A stretch of 64,000 bases of DNA from Oligoflexia bacterium (GCA_023250675.1 JAHFAE010000002.1:7491-71490), one strand, 5' to 3'; shown: positions 8,679 through 50,079, counted from the stretch's first letter. Program-made: numbers and translations. Notes: generated by a model from the sequence alone, not told the origin.

Positions 8679-9563
8679 TCAAAAGACCATCATTTTCATG
8701 CAGAAAACCGAGCCGCCTGATTTTAGAAATTCGGAGGTGTCTAAAGCGTGAACATTAAAACCATTTTTCAAAAGTTTCTTTTCAAAGTCGGCATTGCCAC
8801 GCTGAAGCAAAACGTCATGATCATTGGCGCCATGACAATTCGCGGTAAAACTTTTGGAGCATTCTTCTAACCCGGTTTCAATTACATTTTCAAAAACGCT
8901 GCGAATCAGTTTCATCGCTTGGGGTGCCATTGCATCGGGTTGAACAACGGCAGTTTTCGAGTCGATGATAGAAAAGCAAGTATCTAAATGATAAAACTCG
9001 GGGCGAGTGAGCGGAACAAGAATGACATCCCAACCGGTGATTTCTGAAATCTCATTGTAAACTCCTGGATCAGTTCTTGGCCCACATCCTCCCCAAATAA
9101 GTGGGCGATCGGGGTGCTTGAATGCATCTCCGTTTCCCTCAAAACTAAATTTTTCAGAAACGTGATAAATTTCATAGCCCTGATTTTCGTACCAATTTTC
9201 AAAAATACGGACCTCTTCTTTTCTAAAATCAGATCTCATATTACTGATGATGACAGCCGCTCGATTTGTTTTTTGGTTCCAAAACGGAAAACTCTGATTG
9301 GCGCAAAATACAAAGTCTGGGTAGCCTTCAAGTCCCTGTAGAATTTTAACGTTAAACCCAAGTTCTAAATATTTATCGTAAACCGCTTTCCATTGAATTT
9401 GAGCCAATTCTTTATTTGGCTTATTCAGGTGTCCGTCTGCGGTTTTCATATAGGGATTAATCGCATATAAAATATCGTAGTACTCAGGATTTGCCATCAA
9501 GATTTTAGAGGGTAATCTCGTTTGATGTAGTGGCGGAATTTGATCCAGGGTTTCGATGATCAT
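8679..9563 (-). CDS. Amidinotransferase/DDAH/arginine-deiminase superfamily protein.
   Basis: 294 aa with a C-terminal catalytic-Cys context (GGSVFCMKMM), typical of the guanidino-group-modifying enzyme fold. Translationally coupled (ATGA overlap) with the downstream paralogue. Confidence 0.5.
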   Translation of the reverse strand: MIIETLDQIPPLHQTRLPSKILMANPEYYDILYAINPYMKTADGHLNKPNKELAQIQWKAVYDKYLELGFNVKILQGLEGYPDFVFCANQSFPFWNQKTNRAAVIISNMRSDFRKEEVRIFENWYENQGYEIYHVSEKFSFEGNGDAFKHPDRPLIWGGCGPRTDPGVYNEISEITGWDVILVPLTRPEFYHLDTCFSIIDSKTAVVQPDAMAPQAMKLIRSVFENVIETGLEECSKSFTANCHGANDHDVLLQRGNADFEKKLLKNGFNVHALDTSEFLKSGGSVFCMKMMVF

Positions 9564-29261: not shown

Positions 29262-30959
29262 ATGAAAATGTCATGGATGTCATTGATTACGATTTTAACG
29301 TTGTCTTGTCTGTTCAGCCCGCGCAGTTATGCCGAACTACCTCGGCGTGCTTTAGAATTGGAACTAGAAGCGGTCACGGGAGTTTCAGGTTACGAAATCC
29401 AAGTTATTCGAATCTTAGAAAATAATAAACGTAAACCGCCAGTACTTTTCAAAATTAAAACAACCACTTGGCGTGCGAAACTTGTTCCGGGTCGCTATGA
29501 ACTTCGCGTTCGATCATTGGATTCCAGAGAAGTTCCAGGGGAGTGGAGTGAATCTCAAGATTTTATCGTCAAACTTCCTCCCGCAACTTTGACTAAGCCC
29601 TCAACAGATGAAGTAGTAATGTCAGATCAAACTGAGAAAGAAAAAGTAAATTTTCAATGGCAGCCGGTAGAAGGTGCTGAAAAATATAAGTTAAGAATTC
29701 TAGATTCAAAGGGTTCTATGGTTCTTGAAACCATGGAAAAAGACTCCAGCGTAAGAGTTGAGCTCCCTGTCGGCAAAACATACAGTTGGATTCTTATCCC
29801 TGTTATGCCTGGGGATTTAGAAGGGGAGGCCAATGAACCGGCTAATCCGTTTCAACTTCATGGTGGAAAATTGAAACCTCCTAAAATTGGAGCTGTCGAT
29901 GATACAAACACCGAAGATTTTGAGTGGGCCGAACACTCCCTTGCCGATGAGTTTTCAATAAAAATTGAAAAAAGGGACTTAAAAGGAAATTGGATTGCAC
30001 ATTACGAAGCTAATAAAATTTCTGGGACCAAACATAAGACCGATAAAATTCTTCCGACAGGCAAGTACAGAGTCTTATTGTCTTGCGTGAGCAAAATGTG
30101 GCAAGAATCTGAATTTTCCATGAAGGAATTCAGTACTCGCGATTTAGGTACGAGAGCTCCTGCCGCCATTGAACAGATAAAAGCCGAGGCAAGTTACGAT
30201 TCAAAGAGTCGCATCTTTGCAGTAGCAAGTTATTATTTTTCGTCTATCGATTTTAGCAGTAAGAATGCAGATGTTGGTAATGAGACTAAATTTAACGCAA
30301 TCAGCGGCACGGGGAGATTGGGAGTGGGAACTTGGTTTGGCGATGATTCAAAATGGGGTGCATTGTTGACGGCTGATCTATCTGGAATTCAAATTGCGAA
30401 TTCTGGTTCAACGCAAACCTCCACCTATGCATCGGCTGCAATACTTGGGGTTTACAGAATGCGGCTTGAATCCATTGGTCAGCTTAGATTTTATATGGGA
30501 TTAGACTATAAAGAATTACCTGAGACGGTGAAGAAACCAGGAAGTCAAATCCAAATTGTCCAAAGAAAGATCACCACTGCGGGTCCAAGTTTAGGCGTTG
30601 GTTTCTATCATGGGTTTAGTCAGAACATCGGCATTCAATTTAACTTAGGACTACGTCATTCTACATTGGGATTAAGCACGCCTGAGTCCGCACGATCTGC
30701 ACTCGGCATCTCCCCAAATGGGGGCAATAATGGGGCAACAGATTCAAGTGGCCATGGTTCTAACATTGGCCGCGTTAGTTATCAAGGCGGCGTTCTAGGT
30801 TCTCTAAAGTTAAAGACCGGCCTCGTAGGATTTCTCGGTTACGTCTATCGAGTAGAAAACGCTGCGTATACGACAACCTCCGGTTCTCGCGGAATTGGCG
30901 ACAACTCCGTTTCTCTGACCGGCCATTATCTGAACCTCATGTTAGAGTACGGCTTCTAA
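29262..30959 (+). CDS. Secreted protein with N-terminal Fn3-like repeats and a C-terminal outer-membrane beta-barrel (ends ...LEYGF).
   Basis: Signal peptide. Fn3 signatures (FQWQPVEGAEKYKLRI). C-terminal alternating hydrophobic beta-strand pattern and a terminal aromatic residue typical of OMPs. Confidence 0.5.
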   Translation: MKMSWMSLITILTLSCLFSPRSYAELPRRALELELEAVTGVSGYEIQVIRILENNKRKPPVLFKIKTTTWRAKLVPGRYELRVRSLDSREVPGEWSESQDFIVKLPPATLTKPSTDEVVMSDQTEKEKVNFQWQPVEGAEKYKLRILDSKGSMVLETMEKDSSVRVELPVGKTYSWILIPVMPGDLEGEANEPANPFQLHGGKLKPPKIGAVDDTNTEDFEWAEHSLADEFSIKIEKRDLKGNWIAHYEANKISGTKHKTDKILPTGKYRVLLSCVSKMWQESEFSMKEFSTRDLGTRAPAAIEQIKAEASYDSKSRIFAVASYYFSSIDFSSKNADVGNETKFNAISGTGRLGVGTWFGDDSKWGALLTADLSGIQIANSGSTQTSTYASAAILGVYRMRLESIGQLRFYMGLDYKELPETVKKPGSQIQIVQRKITTAGPSLGVGFYHGFSQNIGIQFNLGLRHSTLGLSTPESARSALGISPNGGNNGATDSSGHGSNIGRVSYQGGVLGSLKLKTGLVGFLGYVYRVENAAYTTTSGSRGIGDNSVSLTGHYLNLMLEYGF

Positions 30960-31018
30960 GGTGCCAGGCACCTTTTCCGCAAATATAGAGGTGCCTGCTG
31001 GTTTTTCCGCAAATGTAG
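30957..31018. repeat. REP-like doublet (left copy): palindrome GGTGCC(A/T)GGCACC plus two direct TTTTCCGCAAAT(A/G)TAG units. Inverted relative to the copy at 32441-32505.
   Basis: The reverse complement matches the 32441-32505 copy at about 57/60 positions. Lies immediately after the stop of the upstream gene. Confidence 0.75.
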
Positions 31019-31077
31019 TTGATCTGAGGCTTAAAGTTTAACTTTTAGAAATGTGCTGTGTGGTTATTTTTGGCCCG

Positions 31078-31512
31078 CTACAAACCTTCACAATCCCGAA
31101 CAAAGTATGTTTCAATCTGACTCTTTGAACCATACTTGGGGTTGTACAAATAGAATTCAAGGCGAGGATAGTAGTTCTCGAGGTTTATTGCCAAAGCCTG
31201 TAGGTAGGTTCCGGTAGTAACAACATAATGGCGACCAGCCCAGGTAGCCAGTGGCAAAACAATTTCATGTTTAGAATTAATATTTTTTTCGGACAGTAGG
31301 CCCTTTTCAAATACTAGCCAGTTAACCAAGTGACCCCTAAAAATTATTTGTCTAGACGGGCTTGTTGTATCGTAATCAACGGCAAAAATCCCTTTGTCGC
31401 AGTTTACAGCATTTTTCCATGGTTCGGAAAAAGCAACCAAAGGTGCTAAGAAAATTGCAAAGGTTAATAATCCTAATATCAAACTTGGCCTCTTAATAAT
31501 TGAAATTGTCAT
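31078..31512 (-). CDS. Small secreted hypothetical protein located inside the REP-bounded segment.
   Basis: 144 aa with signal peptide LILGLLTFAIFLAPLVAFS and 2 Cys. Confidence 0.4.
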   Translation of the reverse strand: MTISIIKRPSLILGLLTFAIFLAPLVAFSEPWKNAVNCDKGIFAVDYDTTSPSRQIIFRGHLVNWLVFEKGLLSEKNINSKHEIVLPLATWAGRHYVVTTGTYLQALAINLENYYPRLEFYLYNPKYGSKSQIETYFVRDCEGL

Positions 31513-31669
31513 TTGTAACTCCCTGGAATAAATTCAAAACGTGGGCTTAAAACCGTCTCATTTTTTGGCCATTTACCCACCATTGTTGAATTAGTGCTAA
31601 TTGAGACTTCTGAGGCTTACTATTGAAATAATCGTGCCATCAGAATTTGGGAAGTGATTTCTCTCAAAA

Positions 31670-32410
31670 ATGTCCGAAATTGTCCGACGTGGATTCGGAC
31701 ACTTTATGCTCAATATACCATATATTTCATTTGGGAAGTTGGTACGCTTTGCATTGTCGATTCGCATGACGAGAAAATTGGCAGTTACTTCTGAGTATTT
31801 CCCTTTTCATATTACCGCACGCACGGTGAACAGAGACCTTTTTCCTATTCCACTACCAATCCTTTGGCAAGTTTATGAAAACTACCTTTACTATATACAC
31901 TTGGCATACGGGACAAAATTACTTTCATTTGTATTAATGCCAAATCACTTTCATCTACTAGCTCAATTTCCAAAAGGTAACATGAGCGAAACAATGGGTT
32001 TTTTCATGGGCGAAACAAGTAGGCGGGTTGGGGAAAAATCCGGGCGGATAAACCAATTGTATGGTGGCCGTTACCATCGCTCTCTCATATCTAATGAGAT
32101 TTATTTTAGGCACGCATATAAGTATGTCTACAGTAATCCAGTAAGAGCAAATTTAGTAAATAGAGTGGAGGACTATCCATTCTCAAGCTTGCACGGCTTG
32201 TTAGGCAGACGCACACTCGTAATTCCGATTGAAGAAGATACTTTGCTTTTTAATCAAGAATTCAGTTGGAAAACAGTGAACTGGCTGAATCGAAATCCCC
32301 AAAAAACCCATTTGGAAGAGGTTCGTTGTGCGCTTCGCAAAAAGTCATTTTCACTTCCCATAAACAAATTTACAAGAATTCCTAGTCAATTAGAACATCA
32401 AGATTTTTGA
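31670..32410 (+). CDS. REP-associated tyrosine transposase (RAYT / TnpA_REP, IS200-IS605 Y1 HuH family). The true start may be the internal Met at about 31766.
   Basis: HuH motif NHFHLL. RAYT motifs YGGRYHRSLI (compare wqrRFwdH) and YVYSNPVRANLVNRVEDYPFSS (compare YIHxNPVKxGLVxxxxDWPWSS). Flanked by inverted REP doublets. Confidence 0.75.
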   Translation: MSEIVRRGFGHFMLNIPYISFGKLVRFALSIRMTRKLAVTSEYFPFHITARTVNRDLFPIPLPILWQVYENYLYYIHLAYGTKLLSFVLMPNHFHLLAQFPKGNMSETMGFFMGETSRRVGEKSGRINQLYGGRYHRSLISNEIYFRHAYKYVYSNPVRANLVNRVEDYPFSSLHGLLGRRTLVIPIEEDTLLFNQEFSWKTVNWLNRNPQKTHLEEVRCALRKKSFSLPINKFTRIPSQLEHQDF

Positions 32411-32440
32411 ATTTAACTTAGAGAAATTTTCGCCAAATGC

Positions 32441-32505
32441 CCCTATATTTGCGGAAAAACCAGCAGGCACCTCTATATTTGCGGAAAAGGTGCCTGGCAC
32501 CTAGG
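32441..32505. repeat. REP-like doublet (right copy), inverted relative to 30957-31018.
   Basis: CCCTATATTTGCGGAAAAACCAGCAGGCACCTCTATATTTGCGGAAAAGGTGCCTGGCACCTAGG. Abuts the stop of the downstream minus-strand gene. Confidence 0.75.
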
Positions 32506-34357
32506 CGGCTTTGATCTTGTCGGCATGTTCGGCTTCATAAGCAGAGTAGGGTGTTGAAATCTCAATTGCCCTCCCTGTCTCATCGATATAACCGGTAACT
32601 TTAAATAATTTAAGAGGTTCTGATTTTCCTTTCACTGTGGCCGTGCCTGCTTGAACAAAAGTAAAAAATTCTTTTACTTTTTCATAAGTAACTTCGCTCA
32701 CAAGAAAATCTGTACCGTAAGCCTTAGTTGCGGCTTCAATTCTTGAGGCCATGTTAACTGTATCTCCGATGACAGTGTATTCCATACGATCATCGCTTCC
32801 GATAGTTCCTGCGATAAGGTCTCCGGAATGAACACCCATTCCAATTTTAATGGGACTTTGTTTTCGCTCGATTCGCGTCGCGTTTAGTTCGGCAAGTGCC
32901 TGCCTCATTTCTAAGCAAGCTTTAAGCGCGTTGGCAGCATCATTCCCAAAACTCTCTGGCGCGCCCCATACCGCCATGATGGCGTCTCCTATGAATTTGT
33001 CGACGACACCTTTGTTTTTTGTGATAATAGCAACCATAACTTTAAAATATTCATTGAGCATATCCACTACTTCTTGGGGAGTGGCTTTTTCGCTGGTAGC
33101 CGTAAATCCTCTGATATCACTAAAAAAAACAGTGGCCTCTCGAAAATCACCACCCAGTTTCATTTCACCAGTGATGAGTTTGTTCGCGATGCCGGTGCCG
33201 TGGAATTTATTAAAAAGAGTTTTAACTTTGTCGCGTTCTTTGAGACCTACCACCATTTTATCAAATGCTTGTGCTAATTGCCCCACTTCATCTTTGGTTT
33301 TGATAGACGCATTAGCTTCAAAATTACCTTTGGCTACTTCTTCTGTGGCCCGCAACAATACTTCGAGGGGTCTTGTGAGTGTCGTAGAAAATAAAATAAT
33401 GAAGAATAACGCGCCAAAGAGGACAATGCCTGTTATTAAAAAGGCGTTTCGACGAACGTTTAATGAAGGTTCAAGAAAAATGCTTCCAGGTATTTCTGAA
33501 ATCACAATGGGACCATACAGTGTTTTTGCGTAGGCACCAACTATTGTCTCTTTATCTTCATTTTCAAACCGACTTTGAAATTGATTTACTTTTTGAGACA
33601 AAGCTTTAACTACCATGGGGTCAGCAGATAAATTTTGGCCGTGTATGGCAAACTCTTGGTTGGAATGGGCCAATGTTCTTCCAAATTTATCAACTAAGAA
33701 GATTGTTCTCTCACTCATTCTTTCGGCCAAGGTGTCAAATATGGCTTGAAATCGGCTTAACCGTATATCCGCTAGAACCACATGGGTGATTCGACCGGTT
33801 TCATCATCTTTGACCAGGGGCAAACTAATAGACAAGAGTGGGGCTCCACCCTCAAGAGTTGAATTTCGAACCTCGACTTCTCCTATTTCAAAAGACAACC
33901 TTGTAGAAAACGGTTTATTAGCTCTGAGCGACGAAATGTACTCGCTGTCCACCTTGTATTGTTTTAAATATTCCTCATTGATAACTCGCTTTACCAACAC
34001 ATCTTTATTGTCAACACGGGTTATAACTTCGACGGCAACAAGATCGTGGTCACCACGAAACGCAAGATCTAGAGCGGCTTCTCTATTTTCTTCAGAAGGA
34101 AAATTTCTATAGAGAATTCCACCCACTACTTTTTCTTTATTAATAATATCTTGAAAATTGTCTTGAATTTCTTCGGCAATAATTTTGGCTTGACTACCGT
34201 TGACGTCGTTTTCTCTTGCGGTTGAAACGTCTTTAAACAAAAACGTCGATCGCAATGCAATTGGAATGGTCGCTGCGAGCATCAGTAGACTAGTGATAGT
34301 CACAAGTTTTACTGCGATAGGGATTTTCATATTTTTGATTTTATCAAGCATCTCCAA
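32501..34357 (-). CDS. Membrane-bound class III adenylate/guanylate cyclase with an extracytoplasmic sensor region and a HAMP linker.
   Basis: Cyclase core FSDIRGFTATSE...GDAIMAVWGAP...GVHSGDLIAGTIG. Two TM segments bracket a ~250-aa periplasmic domain. Confidence 0.7.
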   Translation of the reverse strand: MEMLDKIKNMKIPIAVKLVTITSLLMLAATIPIALRSTFLFKDVSTARENDVNGSQAKIIAEEIQDNFQDIINKEKVVGGILYRNFPSEENREAALDLAFRGDHDLVAVEVITRVDNKDVLVKRVINEEYLKQYKVDSEYISSLRANKPFSTRLSFEIGEVEVRNSTLEGGAPLLSISLPLVKDDETGRITHVVLADIRLSRFQAIFDTLAERMSERTIFLVDKFGRTLAHSNQEFAIHGQNLSADPMVVKALSQKVNQFQSRFENEDKETIVGAYAKTLYGPIVISEIPGSIFLEPSLNVRRNAFLITGIVLFGALFFIILFSTTLTRPLEVLLRATEEVAKGNFEANASIKTKDEVGQLAQAFDKMVVGLKERDKVKTLFNKFHGTGIANKLITGEMKLGGDFREATVFFSDIRGFTATSEKATPQEVVDMLNEYFKVMVAIITKNKGVVDKFIGDAIMAVWGAPESFGNDAANALKACLEMRQALAELNATRIERKQSPIKIGMGVHSGDLIAGTIGSDDRMEYTVIGDTVNMASRIEAATKAYGTDFLVSEVTYEKVKEFFTFVQAGTATVKGKSEPLKLFKVTGYIDETGRAIEISTPYSAYEAEHADKIKAA

Positions 34358-43608: not shown

Positions 43609-45327
43609 ATGATAAATATTCTTGGATTGACTTTATCGTTAATTGTTTCCTGCAACACCTTTGCAGACATGGATGTGTCTTTTACGATCAAAACCTCAAA
43701 AATTGATACACTTACCAATGAAATCACTTTCGTAGCACCGCCAAATCACCATTTTAATGGGCAATCCCCCTCCTTGGCTGAAGGACAGGCAGGTGGAAAT
43801 TGGGTCAGGGCACATACGCTAAATACTTCAGGTAATGAAGTGAAAGCATTCTGGGAAGAAAAAATTGAACCTTGCCATCTGCGGGCGCATTTATATATGT
43901 GTGACGATGCAAACACTTATTGTTTACCGATTAAACAAAATTTTAGTTGTCGTGGTAAAGAGTTCTATATCTCTGGCTGGCTTGATGATGAAAAGGATAA
44001 AGTCAAACCAACTGAAGAATCGATTGGATCTCAAGACGGTTTTATATTAAATGATGCTAGAATTGTTTTTGAAAAAGCAAGAGTTGAAAACAAACTGGTC
44101 CTCATTGATTTTTTTGGCATTTGGTGTCCTCCCTGTAACATGTTGGATGAAACAGTCTTTTCTTCAGAAGATTTTTCAAAATTGAAAGGGAGTTTTATAC
44201 TCTTGAAAATTGACGTAGATAAACCATTGGCCTGGGACCTGAAATCCAAATACAAGATTAGAGGTTACCCGACAGTTTTGTTTACCACCCCAAAGGGAGA
44301 TGAGATAGACCGAATTCTTGGAGCCCGCACCCTTCCCGATTTTATCAAAGTAATGAAAAAGGCACTATCTAATAAGACCAATTCATTTGTCGAAGCAAAA
44401 CGTATTGCCGATGAGAAAAACGATAAAAATGCCGCATTGCAGGTGGGCAATATTTATTTAAACCGCAGAGAGTATCATGATGCTCACTTCTATTATTTAA
44501 AGTCTATTTTAAATGGTAGTGCTGGGTCGGCGCGCAAAAACTTAGAAAATAATATCATGAGTGCGACTCTTGGAATTTATGCAAATGCCGCTGATTCGAA
44601 TTCTCGTCAGAGACATGTTGCTCTATTAAAAATGGCAATAGAAAAATTTCCCCACTATATTGAGGCACTGGATCGAGCGGACGAATTGGTTAACCAAACT
44701 AAAGAACTAGAAAATAAATCTGCAGAACGTGAAGTCTTAAATCTTCAGATTAATACGGCCAAGTGGTTTCTTAAGAATCCCAAAGCTTTACAAGGATCAG
44801 AATGGACTTTTGGGGATTTGTACCAGGTCATTGGGGATTCCTACGGCTCACTCACTGAAATAGAAAAGTCGAGGGAATCATATAAAGAAGCTTCAAAATA
44901 CTACTTAAAGCAAATTCAAGATGCACATCTTAATGAAAATTCTGAAAGAGGATTTAATTTGGAGAGAATTTATTGCCTTTGGAAATCTGGCCGGGTTGAA
45001 GAAGCCCGGCAAGCCTATGAAAAATTAGAAAAAATATACCCAGAAGAATTCACATTTTATTATCAGCATGGCCGGCTTTTAGACGAAATCAAACTCCCCA
45101 AAGAAGCTCAGGGTAAAGCGGAAAAAGCATACAAATTTTCTTATGGGGACAACCATCTGCGTTCAGCGGCATTACTTGCAAAAATTCTCAAAGACCTCGG
45201 GGAAAGTGCAGGTGCCCAAAAGATCTTAGATGAAACCATGAAAAACACCGATTTACCGGAAGACAAATCTGTTCGGACCCACCGATATTTTGAAAAGCTT
45301 CAAAAACTAAAAGCAGAACTGAAATAA
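43609..45327 (+). CDS. Lipoprotein/secreted thioredoxin-fold protein (WCPPC active site) fused to C-terminal TPR repeats.
   Basis: Lipobox-like LSLIVSC. Thioredoxin motif DFFGIWCPPCNML. TPR-like helical repeats in the C-terminal half. Confidence 0.55.
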   Translation: MINILGLTLSLIVSCNTFADMDVSFTIKTSKIDTLTNEITFVAPPNHHFNGQSPSLAEGQAGGNWVRAHTLNTSGNEVKAFWEEKIEPCHLRAHLYMCDDANTYCLPIKQNFSCRGKEFYISGWLDDEKDKVKPTEESIGSQDGFILNDARIVFEKARVENKLVLIDFFGIWCPPCNMLDETVFSSEDFSKLKGSFILLKIDVDKPLAWDLKSKYKIRGYPTVLFTTPKGDEIDRILGARTLPDFIKVMKKALSNKTNSFVEAKRIADEKNDKNAALQVGNIYLNRREYHDAHFYYLKSILNGSAGSARKNLENNIMSATLGIYANAADSNSRQRHVALLKMAIEKFPHYIEALDRADELVNQTKELENKSAEREVLNLQINTAKWFLKNPKALQGSEWTFGDLYQVIGDSYGSLTEIEKSRESYKEASKYYLKQIQDAHLNENSERGFNLERIYCLWKSGRVEEARQAYEKLEKIYPEEFTFYYQHGRLLDEIKLPKEAQGKAEKAYKFSYGDNHLRSAALLAKILKDLGESAGAQKILDETMKNTDLPEDKSVRTHRYFEKLQKLKAELK

Positions 45328-45401
45328 TATTTCTCATCTTTTTCGATTCTAAATTGGCTTCTTAAACTAGCCAATTTGCCCTTCGAACTTTTTGCCGGAA
45401 A

Positions 45402-45470
45402 GGCCTTATATTTGCGGAAAAACCACCAGGCACCTCTATATTTGCGGAAAAGGTGCCTGGCACCTAGGCC
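45402..45470. repeat. Solo REP-like doublet, same family and orientation as the 32441-32505 copy, filling the spacer between convergent genes.
   Basis: GCCTTATATTTGCGGAAAAACCACCAGGCACCTCTATATTTGCGGAAAAGGTGCCTGGCACCTAGGCCC. Near-identical to the right REP of the RAYT locus. Confidence 0.75.
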
Positions 45471-47024
45471 CTAATTGAATTCTTGGCGCAGTTTGTATTT
45501 ATTTACCAAACCATGGTCGTCCAAGGGGAGTTCGGAAAGGAAAATAATTTTTTTGGGTCTTTCATGAATTGGTAAACTTTGGTCGATTAATTCTTGAAGG
45601 GAGGCGATTGTAAGTTTGGACCCAGGGGATTTAACTATGAAAGCAGTGAGTTCAAGTTTACCCATTTTATTCTTGATATGGGCCACAGCGGCACGGTGTA
45701 CGCCCTGGCATTTCGAAAGATGCGCTTCAAGTTCACTTGGTAAGACAAATTCTTTAGTACTAAGATTCAGGTTATCCCGACGATCTAAATAAGTAACGAC
45801 TTGTTCTTTGTTTACTTCAACCATATCACCAGTAAAAAACCATGTTCCACGCATATTGGTTTTTGTTGCATCTTTATTTTTAAAATAGCTTGTCGCAACG
45901 CTTGGGCCTGAGACCAAAAGTTGGCCGCGACGTACTTTATTGGTCGGTAAATCGTCGCCGTTTTGATCTGTAACTCTTGTCTTCAATCCCTTAAGAAATT
46001 GGCCCACTGATTCGGGCGATTCTGGATTGTCAAAACTCTGCATGGCGACGGCAAAGCAAGTTTCGACTGAACCATAAAATCTCAATAATCGCAGATTAAA
46101 ATAATCTTGCGATAAAACTTCGGCCTTTGAGCCTAGGGGACCGTGTTCCACCGTAATACTTCGAATGGTTGGTATCTTGAGATTTTCGCGCCTTAAGATA
46201 TCAAGCCACTCTTCGACCATAAGCGACTTCATGAGCACGCGTGTCACTCGGGCTTCTATTAGATCCCGTTGCAATTCTGAAGGAGTTATCTCGTCTGAAA
46301 TGTACACTCCCGCCCCCGTCAAAAGGGGCAACATCAAACCGTGCATAAAATAAAAGGGTTTTGTCAATGAAGACCCGTAAGAAAACATAATATCATTGGC
46401 ACTGAGACGATAACTTGCTGTCAGAGCCATTGCGGCATGATTAAGCATGGCATGGGTGTAGGGTACGCACTTTGGTCTGCCCGAGACTCCTTGGGTATCA
46501 AAATAGGCCACCACGTCTGAATCACCAGCAGACATACTGGGGGGTAATCGGTAAGTATTTTCATACTCGCTCCAACGACGTTTTTCGCATTGGATAATAG
46601 GGATATTGATTCTTTTAGATTTTAGCTCTCTCTTTAAATTTACGACACAATCGTCGCTGGCGATGATCGCGTGCACTGAAAAGTCTGATATTACTTTTGA
46701 GAGTTTTTCAGAGGTCCAGGAGGGATCACCAAAAATAGCGGTATTTTTAGTATTGGCCAAAGCAAAAAAGCTAAATGCCATGTGGGGACAATTAGTCATG
46801 TAAACTAATACATTTTTACCGTGCATAATTTCTTTTTGGAGAAAGTAAGAGTAGCGGCTGATATAATCGTAGGCCTCACGATAACTTGTGGATCTTCCAA
46901 GATATCGAAACGCTGGCTTGGTAGAATTTTTACTTGCCGTAACAGCCAACTTTTGACCGATGAGCATTTTTAAAGAATAATACAGTGTTGAGAAATTGTC
47001 TCCCCTTGGCGCCACAGGGTTCAT
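45471..47024 (-). CDS. AMP-dependent synthetase/ligase (acyl-CoA synthetase-like adenylate-forming enzyme).
   Basis: 517 aa with adenylation-domain motifs (YGSVET, TGD, and a conserved Lys near the C-terminus). Confidence 0.55.
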   Translation of the reverse strand: MNPVAPRGDNFSTLYYSLKMLIGQKLAVTASKNSTKPAFRYLGRSTSYREAYDYISRYSYFLQKEIMHGKNVLVYMTNCPHMAFSFFALANTKNTAIFGDPSWTSEKLSKVISDFSVHAIIASDDCVVNLKRELKSKRINIPIIQCEKRRWSEYENTYRLPPSMSAGDSDVVAYFDTQGVSGRPKCVPYTHAMLNHAAMALTASYRLSANDIMFSYGSSLTKPFYFMHGLMLPLLTGAGVYISDEITPSELQRDLIEARVTRVLMKSLMVEEWLDILRRENLKIPTIRSITVEHGPLGSKAEVLSQDYFNLRLLRFYGSVETCFAVAMQSFDNPESPESVGQFLKGLKTRVTDQNGDDLPTNKVRRGQLLVSGPSVATSYFKNKDATKTNMRGTWFFTGDMVEVNKEQVVTYLDRRDNLNLSTKEFVLPSELEAHLSKCQGVHRAAVAHIKNKMGKLELTAFIVKSPGSKLTIASLQELIDQSLPIHERPKKIIFLSELPLDDHGLVNKYKLRQEFN

Positions 47025-47113: not shown

Positions 47114-48361
47114 ATGAAAATAAACTCGATGTTAATGAAAAAATATTCTTATCCTAAAGCTTCTATAAAGATATTGTTGGCAGAAAACATTCATTCTGTG
47201 GCCCATGATCGATTGAAAGCAGAGGGATTTTCTGTAGAAGGGGTTAAGCAAGCCCTTGGAGAATCAGAACTCATCTCTAAGACTCAAGATGTTCACGTGC
47301 TTGGAATACGATCGAAAACTCAAATTTCACCGAAGGCGGTTCGTGAGTCGAAGAAGCTTTTGAGTATTGGCTGTTTTTGTATTGGCACAAACCAGGTAGA
47401 TCTAGAAGCAGCTCGGCTTCAAGGAATACCAGTTTTCAATGCGCCTTTTAGCAATACGCGAAGTGTGGCCGAAATGGTAATGGCAGAGATAGTCATGCTG
47501 TCGCGGCAAATAGGTGATCGAAACACTCAATTGCATAATGGTAAATGGGATAAATCAGCAGCGGGCTGCTATGAGATTCGGGGTAAGTGTTTAGGAATAA
47601 TCGGGTATGGTCATATAGGTTCCCAAGTCAGTATACTCGCCGAGAGTTTCGGGATGAAAGTTAACTATTTTGATATTGTTACAAAAATGCCCTTGGGAAA
47701 TGGACGTCAGATTGGATCGCTTGAAGAGCTCTTGGCCCAATCAGATTTTGTAACTCTTCATGTCCCTGAAACTCCACAAACAAAAAATATGGTTGGACCT
47801 CAGCAACTAAAATCTATGAAGGCAGGGAGCTTTTTAATTAATGCAAGTCGAGGTACAGTTGTAGATCTTAGAGCTTTGAAACAATCACTCGTATCAGGGT
47901 ATACGGCTGGAGCGGCTCTTGATGTTTTTCCGGAGGAACCAGAAAGTAATGATGACATTTTTAAGTGTGAACTTCAAAATGTGCCCAATGTCATCTTGAC
48001 CCCCCATATTGGTGGAAGTACCGAAGAGGCCCAAGAAAATATTGGCATTGAAGTTTCAATGAGCCTTATTAAGTTTATCAATAATGGCAGCACAACGGGT
48101 TCAGTGAATTTTCCCCAAGTTGATTTGCCCGTTCACCAATCAAGCCATAGGATTTTGAATATTCATAAAAACGTCCCCGGAGTTTTAAAAGACATTAACA
48201 GAATTATTTCTGATCTTGGTGCCAATATTCAAGGTCAGTATCTTTCGACAGATCCTGAAATTGGATACCTCATTGTGGACCTAGATAAGCAAGTTTCTGA
48301 TAAAGTTAAGGAACAAATTTCTATTTTGCCAACAAGTATTAGAACAAGAATTTTGTACTAA
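47114..48361 (+). CDS. serA: D-3-phosphoglycerate dehydrogenase (long form with C-terminal ACT domain).
   Basis: 2-hydroxyacid dehydrogenase NAD-binding GIIGYGHIGSQV. About 410-aa architecture with a C-terminal regulatory domain, as in E. coli SerA. Confidence 0.75.
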   Translation: MKINSMLMKKYSYPKASIKILLAENIHSVAHDRLKAEGFSVEGVKQALGESELISKTQDVHVLGIRSKTQISPKAVRESKKLLSIGCFCIGTNQVDLEAARLQGIPVFNAPFSNTRSVAEMVMAEIVMLSRQIGDRNTQLHNGKWDKSAAGCYEIRGKCLGIIGYGHIGSQVSILAESFGMKVNYFDIVTKMPLGNGRQIGSLEELLAQSDFVTLHVPETPQTKNMVGPQQLKSMKAGSFLINASRGTVVDLRALKQSLVSGYTAGAALDVFPEEPESNDDIFKCELQNVPNVILTPHIGGSTEEAQENIGIEVSMSLIKFINNGSTTGSVNFPQVDLPVHQSSHRILNIHKNVPGVLKDINRIISDLGANIQGQYLSTDPEIGYLIVDLDKQVSDKVKEQISILPTSIRTRILY

Positions 48362-48409: not shown

Positions 48410-48546
48410 TTTATGAGTATGAATTAGAAAATTTAATCCCCTTCGCCAAAAGGTCGCGCATCCATGCGCTCAAGCTCGGCAAGATCCCTCCGGGGCCGTA
48501 GCCCTTAAGCTGCAGGGATTGAAATTTTCTAATTCATACTCATAAA
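48410..48546. repeat. Long imperfect inverted repeat (~32-bp AT-rich arms) enclosing a ~70-bp GC-rich core with nested palindromes. Candidate structured RNA, MITE-like element or complex bidirectional terminator.
   Basis: Left arm TTTATGAGTATGAATTAGAAAATTTAATCCCC. Right arm GCAGGGATTGAAATTTTCTAATTCATACTCATAAA. Core contains GCGCATCCATGCGC and CCGGGGCCGTAGCCC. Confidence 0.5.
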
Positions 48547-48612: not shown

Positions 48613-50079
48613 CTAAAACACTTTGCCGGGATTCATAATTTCGTTGGGATCTAGGTCTTGTTTGATTTTTTTCATTATGCCAATTTCAAGAGGCGATCGC
48701 GTGTAATGTAAGAAGTCCTTCTTTGTTAAACCGATTCCATGCTCTGCTGAAATACTCCCACCATATTTTTTAACTAATTCAAACATTGAGACATCTGATT
48801 TTTTAGCATGGGCAAAGAATTCGTCTTTAGACATTTTTTCAGGTTTCGTAAAATTCACATGAAGGTTGCCATCGCCAATATGGCCAAAAATAACAGCTTC
48901 AAACCCAGGGTATTTAGAAGAAATAATTTCTTGAAGATCCGTACAAAACGGAGTGATTTTTGAAAGTGGTAAGGAAATATCATTTTTATGTGCTACCGTC
49001 AGTGCAGAGAGACTCTCGGCAATATTTTCTCTTAACCCCCAAAAATCCTGGTCTTGCTGTGAACTTTGGCTTAAAACTCCGTCTACGATTATTTTTTCGT
49101 CAAAGGCTTTTTGCACAAACTGTTCTAAATACCCCTCGGTTTTATCACTTATTTTTTCAACCTCGATGAGTGTGTAAAAGGGGTGGAGTTTAGAAAATGG
49201 CGATTTTAATTTTGTATGTTCCTGAACTCGCAAAAGTCCAAAACTCGTAAACATTTCGTATGCTGTGAGAGGTAATGCCATTTTTTGAGTGAGCTCAAAG
49301 AGAGAAGTAATGTCTTCTAGTTTATTCAACGCAAACAAACAAACCATAAGTTCTTTTGGAGGCGTTGTAAGATTCATGATAACTTCAGTAATAATTCCCA
49401 ACGTCCCTTCGCTACCGATAAACAAATGTTTGAGGTCATACCCCGTATTGTTTTTTACGCAGGCGTTGGTCAGTTCAAGAATACTACCGTCTGCCAAAAC
49501 AACTTTAAGGCCCGAAACCCATTGCCGAATGAGGCCATAGCGAATGACCTTTATACCCCCGGCATTTGTCGCCACATTGCCGCCAATATGACTACTTCCA
49601 CTTGACGCAAAATCCACCGGAAAATACAGCCCTGCATCTACCGCCGCTCGTTGAAGTTCTTTTGTCACAACACCGGCTTGGCAATGAATAGTTTTTTCAA
49701 CGGGATTAACGCCAAATATTCCATTCATTTTAGATGTTGAAATGACGACCTCTTGACGAGCCGCGACGGCACCGCCACTTAGGCCCGTTCGGCCCCCTGA
49801 AGGCACTACTGAAATCTTTTTTTGATTACAAAATTGAAGAATCTTAGAAACCTCTTGAGTGGTTTTAGGAAAAACCGCTGCAAGTGGCGAAGGGGTGTAG
49901 GCCTTTGTGTAATCTTTAGCCCAAGCTTTGGCCTCTTCACCGGTTACCACTTGCGTGGTACCAACTATGGATCGAAATACATCTAAAACTTCACTCATGG
50001 AGCTAGTTTCTACCAAATATATGACGGGTGTCAAAAGGATAGACAGGGAGAAACACCCAAAGGAGCCATCGTATGGCAT
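48613..50079 (-). CDS. FAD-linked oxidase (GlcD / D-lactate dehydrogenase-like, FAD_binding_4 + FAD-oxidase_C).
   Basis: 488 aa with a GGRTGLSGGAV FAD-binding motif. C-terminal HGIGL-like motif AEHGIGLTKK. Confidence 0.65.
   Translation of the reverse strand: MPYDGSFGCFSLSILLTPVIYLVETSSMSEVLDVFRSIVGTTQVVTGEEAKAWAKDYTKAYTPSPLAAVFPKTTQEVSKILQFCNQKKISVVPSGGRTGLSGGAVAARQEVVISTSKMNGIFGVNPVEKTIHCQAGVVTKELQRAAVDAGLYFPVDFASSGSSHIGGNVATNAGGIKVIRYGLIRQWVSGLKVVLADGSILELTNACVKNNTGYDLKHLFIGSEGTLGIITEVIMNLTTPPKELMVCLFALNKLEDITSLFELTQKMALPLTAYEMFTSFGLLRVQEHTKLKSPFSKLHPFYTLIEVEKISDKTEGYLEQFVQKAFDEKIIVDGVLSQSSQQDQDFWGLRENIAESLSALTVAHKNDISLPLSKITPFCTDLQEIISSKYPGFEAVIFGHIGDGNLHVNFTKPEKMSKDEFFAHAKKSDVSMFELVKKYGGSISAEHGIGLTKKDFLHYTRSPLEIGIMKKIKQDLDPNEIMNPGKVF

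Follow-up and report, generated by a model that had tools for sequence, protein, structure and literature searches.

A 64,000-nucleotide stretch of DNA from an Oligoflexia bacterium (GCA_023250675.1, JAHFAE010000002.1:7491-71490; hereafter the window) contains a 1.54-kb cassette, at positions 30959-32502 between two convergent genes, that probably pairs a transposase-class enzyme with the DNA repeats on which it acts. The enzyme is of the TnpAREP/RAYT class of HUH/Y1 proteins (RAYT stands for a tyrosine transposase associated with REPs, and REP for repetitive extragenic palindrome) and belongs to a Bdellovibrionota clade that lies nearest to the TIRYTs, RAYT-like enzymes associated with terminal inverted repeats (TIRs). 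In the reading that we prefer, and consider probable, the inverted repeats bracketing the gene are its cognate substrates and would be mobilised by it in trans. A preliminary description of the same DNA had named the locus a REPtron, a RAYT gene set between inverted REP doublets, and had correctly placed it between convergent genes, which encode a 565-aa protein upstream and a cyclase downstream.

The repeats define the cassette. A repeat search of the whole window returned two inverted arms of 60 nt each, complementary at 59 of 60 positions (98%) and spaced 1424 nt apart (Table 1), in agreement with the near-identical doublets first described. Each arm consists of two direct 30-nt units, AGGTGCCAGGCACCTTTTCCGCAAATATAG and AGGTGCCTGCTGGTTTTTCCGCAAATRTAG, which are 77% alike and follow the pattern AGGTGCC-N7-TTTTCCGCAAATRTAG. 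The doublet had originally been drawn as a palindrome plus two direct units. Both ingredients are present; the arrangement is rather one of two tandem 30-nt units, with the palindrome inside unit A. This palindrome is perfect (6+6), while unit B is not palindromic. The 16-mer TTTTCCGCAAATRTAG occurs six times in the window against 0.15 expected, and the 13-nt palindrome GGTGCCWGGCACC three times against 0.01, counts that no shuffle reached. When the flanks of each of 49 window open reading frames (ORFs) were compared with one another, an inverted repeat (E<1e-3) was found around the RAYT-like gene only (1/49).

The gene between the arms encodes an intact enzyme of a recognisable class. The ORF described at 31670-32410, with its HUH motif NHFH and C-terminal YVYSNPVRANLV...DYPFSS, was found as reported, together with a YVYSNP (Y---NP) motif. 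The start codon has been moved, and is probably at 31766, because the homologues are 212-214 aa long and begin with MPRK... aligned with M33 of the longer frame. In the numbering of the 214-aa protein, the HUH motif is H61-F62-H63 and the catalytic tyrosine Y120, followed by N124-P125; H61, H63, Y120, N124 and P125 vary little or not at all in 120 homologues, and the HUH and Y---NP motifs as little in sets of 32 and 120. The C-terminal ~70 aa are family-specific and include a conserved W173-L-N. Pfam assigns Y1_Tnp (29.9 bits), and among NCBIfam models REP_Tyr_transpos (NF047646) scores 74.1 bits, just under its cutoff of 80, as against 16.2 bits for the IS200 model NF033573, whose cutoff is 55. 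A phmmer search of the PDB gave Escherichia coli TnpAREP (4ER8) as the best match (E 5.9e-8), with IS200-type TnpAs at E 0.3-0.4. In the alignment with 4ER8, HFH falls on H59-M-H61 and YVYSNP on Y115...N119; H59 and H61 are metal ligands and Y115 the catalytic tyrosine of the E. coli enzyme (Messing et al., PMC3479197). An AlphaFold model built from 120 homologues is confident (pLDDT 96.4, pTM 0.92), with short helices at 141-145, 168-175 and 180-190 in the C-terminal part. Foldseek again ranked 4ER8 first (E 2.6e-8, TM 0.73 on the target) and placed the ISDra2, IS608 and IS200 transposases at 3e-5 or worse. Class 1 TnpAY1 proteins carry the motif Y---Q and class 2 proteins Y---NP (PMC6006769). 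The enzyme is a single-domain, class 2 RAYT-like HUH/Y1 protein and clearly not an IS200 TnpA, as the preliminary description had proposed. The window holds no second copy of the gene, and Pfam and NCBIfam searches found no TnpB-like ORF among the neighbours (the cyclase gene, the 565-aa gene and an orphan ORF without a family).

Relatives of the protein form a large clade. A word-indexed search returned 310, the named ones all being from Bdellovibrio, Pseudobdellovibrio, Pseudobdellovibrionaceae or Oligoflexia. An exhaustive profile search gave 447 clusters (50% identity) at E<=1e-30, most of them matched over the full length, the C-terminal part specific to the clade included; at E<=1e-3 the superfamily as a whole comprises 35,611. 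We compared eight homologous loci, whose proteins are 39-57% identical to that of the window. Flanking inverted repeats of 25-66 nt, 92-100% matched, were present in seven of the eight (L027, L028 from B. svalbardensis, L029, L033, L034, L038 and L042). The gene neighbourhood differs in every homologous locus. The right repeat lies at the stop codon or within ~30 nt after it. Across the clade the repeats share the core AAGGTRCC-N6-7-T4-6-CGG, and aligning single units from different loci gives AAAGGTGCC-n-GGT-n-C-TTTTT-n-CGGAA, in which GGT-CC-G is invariant. The repeat reads TTGGGTTCCAGGTCCTAAACCTGGTCAC in the complete genome CP060220.1 and GGTGCCTGCCATCTT in B. svalbardensis (GCA_029531655.1). 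Tandem doubling recurs in L028 and L029. L033 has further copies close to the gene (8856-8883, intergenic), and L034 a partial one. Since the repeat and its core recur around the homologues, gene and repeat constitute a conserved, co-evolving pair, and such a pair is the central property of REP/RAYT-type systems. Databases thus recognise the protein class already: the Joint Genome Institute (JGI) labels several members of the family 'REP element-mobilizing transposase RayT'.

One of these loci, L027, is a 1082-bp contig (ENA ERZ27276474) carrying a 57%-identical paralogue or relative, and the same metagenome sample holds a copy of the window locus. Its repeat variant is TCAAGGTGCCAGGCGGTTTTTTCGG. 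The contig ends exactly in the right repeat, which is consistent with an assembly breaking at repeated sequence.

The repeat is also present beyond the flanking pair, 13 kb away. A third doublet (45406-45465), unreported in the preliminary description, lies between another pair of convergent genes and matches the left arm at 57 of 59 positions. With the right arm it aligns over 85 nt (45385-45469 against 32423-32506), since each of the two has, on its inner side, one more partial unit in degenerate form. The doublets are head-to-tail and direct at all three sites, with a period of 30 nt.

The boundaries of these copies lie at or close to stop codons. The left arm had been placed 1 nt after the stop codon of the 565-aa gene; its first base is instead the last base of that stop (TAA, 30957-30959). 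The right arm does adjoin the stop of the convergent gene, which encodes a dCache-HAMP-adenylate/guanylate cyclase, with the correction that its outer 2 nt lie inside the TAG (32501-32503). In the solo copy, 5-7 nt separate the GGTGCC end from the stop of the gene reading into it. All three copies thus present their GGTGCC end 0-7 nt past the stop of the gene reading in, with TA(A/G) just before it, and TA(A/G) again stands immediately 5' of GGTGCC at the unit-unit junction, where ATAG is followed directly by AGGTGCC. Both repeats that flank the homologous gene in L042 likewise begin TAGGTGCC and are found at, or next to, the stop codons of the neighbouring genes. The TA(A/G) before the three window copies suggests insertion beside a TAR-like target, and its recurrence, in three copies plus two supporting loci, is compatible with a cleavage or target tetranucleotide, although this is only a hint. 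We dropped the idea of a universal CTAG/TAR flank: it is present in the window, L042 and L033 and missing in L027, L028, L029 and L038.

A distant relative, the syntenic Oligoflexia metagenome-assembled genome L047, offers a view of the site when the cassette is missing. It encodes an orthologue of the 565-aa protein at 47% aa identity, keeps the gene order (Pyr_redox, LemA, HSP33, FecR-like, 556 aa ... cyclase), and its upstream gene ends EYGF-TAA, as in the window. Examination of this syntenic site revealed neither repeat nor RAYT-like gene; the position of the cassette (window 30960-32500) is taken by a 232-aa methyltransferase gene (L047 9672-10380). In a second relative (the P0268 contig) a 622-aa gene on the same strand stands at the corresponding position. 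The intergenic site is variable among relatives and, with the flanking genes kept and the cassette missing in L047, the 1.54-kb unit behaves as an insertion. Exact-protein look-ups gave nothing beyond short ENA contigs of this locus, at 99.93-100% identity and without polymorphism; the gene next to the solo copy had no match. The base-composition profile of the window (G+C 41.3%) reveals no distinct island.

Which known system does the locus resemble most closely? Canonical REPs, hairpins with a 5' GT[AG]G, go with Y1 subclasses 2.2, 2.4, 2.5, 2.7 and 2.8 (Quentin et al. 2018, PMC6006769). Residues W94-Q95 (E. coli numbering) are conserved in these subclasses, in a region linked to GT[AG]G recognition (PMC6006769). 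The E. coli REPtron (RayT/TnpAREP, YafM, 4ER8; subclass 2.2, Group 2) shares with the window locus its enzyme class, fold and HUH + Y---NP site, and its architecture of a single-copy gene between inverted copies of a repeat that is also extragenic, often between convergent genes; by analogy, the presumed single-strand nick-and-join chemistry would be common to both. The two differ in repeats and in protein. When a conserved GT[AG]G foot was looked for in the six window units, GTAG was found in one only (31015-31018), and there is neither a bulged imperfect palindrome nor an inverted pair of REPs (REPIN/BIME). E. coli IWQPRFWEH aligns with LYGGRYHRS, so that the W94-Q95 pair is Y-G in the window protein. 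The two proteins are 26% identical, measure 214 and 165 aa, and have different C-terminal regions. The IS200/IS605 elements (IS608, ISDra2) likewise share the HUH/Y1 core and fold, and plausibly have in common that they insert beside a short specific sequence. They differ in being multicopy and in carrying Y---Q, often an adjacent tnpB, and same-strand subterminal hairpins, as opposed to the Y---NP motif, missing tnpB, inverted-repeat ends and single gene copy in the window.

The closest likeness is to the third group, subclass 2.1. This subclass is equivalent to Group 1 of Bertels, goes without REPs and is prevalent in epsilon-, beta- and delta-proteobacteria (PMC6006769). Its signature is NHVH/NH[YF]H, W[EQ]/FQ, YIELNP/Y[IV]HLNP and SS, with a median length of ~238 aa (Table 1 of PMC6006769). 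It corresponds to the TIRYTs of Di Nocera et al. 2013, whose TIRs are long and often of the GGGGWSAS type, sometimes forming modest repeat families of singles, dimers or clusters (PMC3733652). Against this signature, the 214-aa window protein has NHFH and FSS, with Y---NP in the form YVYSNP and YG in the place of W[EQ]/FQ. As TIRYT-like controls we used plasmid 'transposase' genes of Legionella, P. aeruginosa and R. rubrum (L043, L044 and L045), found by tblastn. They encode 230-287 aa with exact subclass-2.1 motifs and are flanked by 19-38-nt TIRs of the type AAAGGGG(A/T)CAG (GGGGWSAS-like), the left one being tandemly duplicated in P. aeruginosa. A hidden Markov model (HMM) of the window clade scores the controls at 91.1 (P. 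aeruginosa), 90.4 (Legionella) and 76.6 bits (R. rubrum) and E. coli RayT at 52.9 bits, with the match to the controls covering the catalytic core only (positions 1-142; identity 29-32%).

Much of what defines a TIRtron, a TIRYT gene with its TIRs, is found in the window clade: a RAYT-like HUH/Y1 gene of ~210-240 aa; long, non-GTAG terminal inverted repeats, sometimes tandemly doubled and sometimes in modest dispersed families; a right repeat located at the stop codon or shortly behind it, and a left repeat some tens of nt upstream of the gene (55-112 nt before the start codon in the homologues); the common motifs NH[FYV]H, x-GR[YF][KH], Y---NPVRA and DYP[WFY]S[ST]; and a clade core, AAGGTGCCAG, resembling the AAAGGGG(A/T)CAG of GGGGWSAS TIRs. 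The clade is set apart by its specific C-terminal 70 aa, in which the helix-turn-helix (HTH)-like domain (Bac_DnaA_C, HTH_23, HTH_28) is not detected. Because the doublets are direct and not REP-like, because Y-G replaces W94-Q95, and because the HMM places the clade nearer to the TIRYT-like controls, the locus is closer to a TIRtron than to a canonical REPtron. We therefore class it as TIRtron-like, the cassette belonging to a divergent clade that is specific to Bdellovibrionota and lies nearest subclass 2.1. Neither PMC3733652 nor PMC6006769 gives a Bdellovibrionota example in the text or supplements searched, and in the papers that define RAYTs, TIRYTs and the subclasses Bdellovibrio likewise goes unmentioned there. 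The name REPtron is hence partly supported: right in architecture, with its RAYT-like enzyme, bracketing inverted repeats, extragenic copy and recurrence in homologues, and imprecise in family, since the repeats are not REPs, lack GT[AG]G and form direct doublets. We re-file the locus as TIRtron-like.

Several observations weigh against this reading. The [YFW]G that is the clade consensus in place of W[EQ]/FQ departs from the subclass 2.1 signature, and the core GGTGCCAG (GGTRCCWG across the clade) fits GGGGWSAS at 6/8 positions, so that it is possibly a diverged variant of that motif. Pfam detects no domain besides Y1_Tnp at E<=0.01, and hence no HTH/DnaA_C-like C-terminal domain. The NF047646 score is slightly under its cutoff; with the same model the homologues P0003, P0038 and P0119 score 87.3, 65.4 and 47.3 bits, the TIRYT-like controls 75-79 and E. 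coli RayT 179. One of the eight homologous loci, L041, has motif-like remnants only and no clear inverted repeat. The preliminary description had proposed a hairpin, and a 9-10-bp stem, CAGGCACCT/AGGTGCCTG, does form in the best fold of the doublet by pairing unit A with unit B around a 15-nt loop (z -0.9 to -2.8). This hairpin is weak. Folding of the repeats is modest throughout (z -0.5 to -2.8), and the repeats of the homologues have no hairpin common to all, which makes recognition of a single-strand hairpin uncertain. Copies were also looked for beyond the window. A scan for GGTGCC-N7-TTTTCCGCAAAT in 185,579 representative genomes, the source genome not among them, returned 24 singletons in unrelated taxa, at the level of chance (~17, estimated from the 18 bases that the pattern specifies and from how large the collection is). 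The sole Bdellovibrionales match (L001) was set aside, as it reads as coding sequence without repeat structure. The unit junction of the window repeat gave 0 matches in the JGI metagenome collection, which also does not include the source genome; the L029 repeat likewise gave 0 there although L029 is from a JGI sample, the collection being without these samples. The case for dispersal thus consists of the solo copy, the only one in 64 kb, and of copies close to the gene in two relatives. Finally, Group 1 RAYTs are largely housekeeping-like, with few copies of their flanking 16mers (Bertels et al., PMC5581495), and present-day mobility may therefore be nil.

This last point leads to the rival that we take most seriously while still thinking it improbable, namely that the gene is domesticated and immobile, processing single-stranded DNA for the host, with the repeats as fossil ends or autoregulatory sites and the solo copy a relic. 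The single gene copy in the window and the housekeeping-like, low-copy behaviour of Group 1 (PMC5581495) speak for it, as do the strong conservation, confident fold and intact catalytic residues over hundreds of clusters, which imply selection on the protein. However, arms that are 98% and a solo copy that is 97% identical argue for recent copying or homogenisation, the neighbourhood is different in every genome examined, the syntenic site in L047 is without the cassette, and L033 and L034 have extra copies. A canonical REPtron, with a Group 2/3-type RAYT and flanking REPs drawn from a high-copy (tens to hundreds) extragenic REPIN/BIME family, would equally account for a RAYT-class protein within inverted repeats, a further extragenic copy between convergent genes, the perfect 6+6 palindrome of unit A and the stem possible in the doublet. 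It is a poor match to the remaining evidence: the missing 5' GT[AG]G foot, doublets that are direct and not inverted, the modest hairpin z-scores, Y-G in place of W94-Q95 (PMC6006769), a protein nearer TIRYT-like enzymes than E. coli RayT, and only one non-flanking copy in 64 kb. We judge it slightly less probable than the domesticated gene.

The two other rivals carry very little weight. An IS200/IS605 insertion sequence, that is an autonomous TnpA element with a possibly decayed tnpB, would explain the Pfam Y1_Tnp match and the second-tier position of IS200/IS605 TnpA structures in the fold search. It is effectively refuted by the NF033573 score far below its cutoff, by Y---NP instead of Y---Q (PMC6006769), by the inverted ends and by the lack of a TnpB-like ORF, the orphan ORF having no family; nor is there a second gene copy in the window. 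We regard it as very unlikely. Alternatively, the repeats might be primarily host terminators or other 3'-end elements, associated with a transposase by accident: all three copies lie 0-7 nt past a stop codon, are oriented in the sense direction of whichever gene reads in, and have GC-rich stems followed by T runs. Yet a consensus terminator scan did not call them, 97-98% identity over 60 nt far exceeds what a terminator needs, and the association with RAYT-like genes and the conserved core recur in 7/8 other genomes. As a primary explanation this is scarcely credible, while a secondary terminator role of the repeats is possible.

On the preferred reading of a TIRtron-like cassette with cognate repeats, a mechanism can be outlined by analogy with E. 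coli TnpAREP and IS200/IS605 TnpA (PMC3479197). The enzyme would recognise the repeat units on single-stranded DNA, for instance at the replication fork, where in the window genome the 9-10-bp stem could present the units to it. It would then nick beside the units by means of Y120 and a metal bound by H61/H63/N124, forming a 5'-phosphotyrosine link, and the end would be rejoined to another 3'-OH. Repeat units would in this way be copied or moved in trans to new extragenic sites such as that of the solo doublet at 45.4 kb, and the whole cassette may originally have been moved by the enzyme. A bolder version of the same scheme is a still-active, self-mobilising TIRtron, which uses tandem ~26-nt sites (AAGGTRCC-N-T-run-CGG) as inverted ends and whose cassette and solo arrays insert precisely 3' of TA(A/G), behind stop codons, sometimes donating the stop itself (the cyclase gene; both neighbours in L042). 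We put this forward tentatively, and think it unlikely to hold in full.

The cassette interior upstream of the gene differs from that of the homologues. The left repeat is 748 nt from the start codon, compared with 55-112 nt elsewhere, and a ~650-bp segment (within 31019-31680) that holds an orphan ORF (ORF144; Table 1) is missing from the homologous cassettes. A search of 5.8 billion proteins found no homologue of ORF144, and neither Pfam nor NCBIfam has a match to it. Codon usage gives it a value of 0.043 against 0.061 for a known antisense ORF, a test that cannot separate it from a stop-free shadow ORF, and it is uncertain whether the ORF is a real gene. On either side of the segment stands TCTGAGGCTTA, an 11-nt direct repeat without mismatch (31022 and 31609); we do not claim this as a target duplication, the probability of its arising by chance being an estimated ~0.06. 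Nearer the gene, a hairpin holds the motif TTCGGACAC. The motif [T/C]CGGACAC occurs ~60-85 nt upstream of the RAYT-like start in four of nine loci (window, L027, L033 and L034), and it could act as a promoter or operator, or as another site at which the enzyme binds.

Table 1. Features of the cassette and of the solo repeat copy (window coordinates).
Feature	Position	Strand	Remarks
Left terminal inverted repeat	30959-31018	+	Unit A 30959-30988, with palindrome GGTGCC-A-GGCACC; unit B 30989-31018
Orphan ORF (ORF144)	31078-31512	-	144 aa; N-terminus signal-peptide-like
Hairpin TGTCCGA-N7-TCGGACA	31681-31701	+	Holds motif TTCGGACAC; ~64 nt upstream of probable start codon
RAYT-like/TIRYT-like HUH-Y1 nuclease-transposase gene	31766-32410	+	214 aa from probable start; ORF open from 31670 (246 codons)
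Degenerate extra partial unit, inner side of right repeat	32423-32442	-	Common to solo copy (45385-45405)
Right terminal inverted repeat	32443-32502	-	Same two 30-nt units, reverse-complemented
Solo repeat copy	45385-45469	-	Doublet 45406-45465, with a third, degenerate unit; flanking convergent genes at 43609-45327(+) and 45471-47024(-)

A separate structure was noted elsewhere in the window. At 48410-48546 a GC-rich 74-nt core is surrounded by an inverted repeat of 32 nt (97%), and the whole folds as a 137-nt hairpin (-61.9 kcal/mol, z = -8.3); the genes on either side, 47114-48361(+) and 48613-50079(-), are convergent. It matches no Rfam family, is unrelated in sequence to the RAYT-associated repeat, and could be an element resembling a miniature inverted-repeat transposable element or a structured 3' element. 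The whole 64-kb window contains no tRNA gene and no Rfam family above the gathering score.

TIR-associated RAYT-like enzymes (TIRYT, subclass 2.1, Group 1) constitute the second-largest branch of the Y1 HUH family, and whether they are mobile or domesticated is debated. In the literature that we searched, the TIRYT name is used by two works only, neither of which describes an experiment on one. The locus overturns nothing that is known. It is a clean and compact test case for this little-studied branch, combining near-perfect 60-nt ends with a solo copy and a syntenic site that is empty of the cassette. With a repeat core conserved over a phylum-wide clade (~450 protein clusters) and one small, confidently modelled protein, the hypothesis that the core is the recognition site is directly testable. 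For annotation, the locus draws attention to a family of Bdellovibrionota repeats that lie against stop codons and can cause assemblies to break. Should the self-mobilising TIRtron prove true, it would represent a mode of targeting close to stop codons that is conserved across Bdellovibrionota, and in mechanism would stand midway from IS200/IS605 elements to domesticated REP/RAYT systems.

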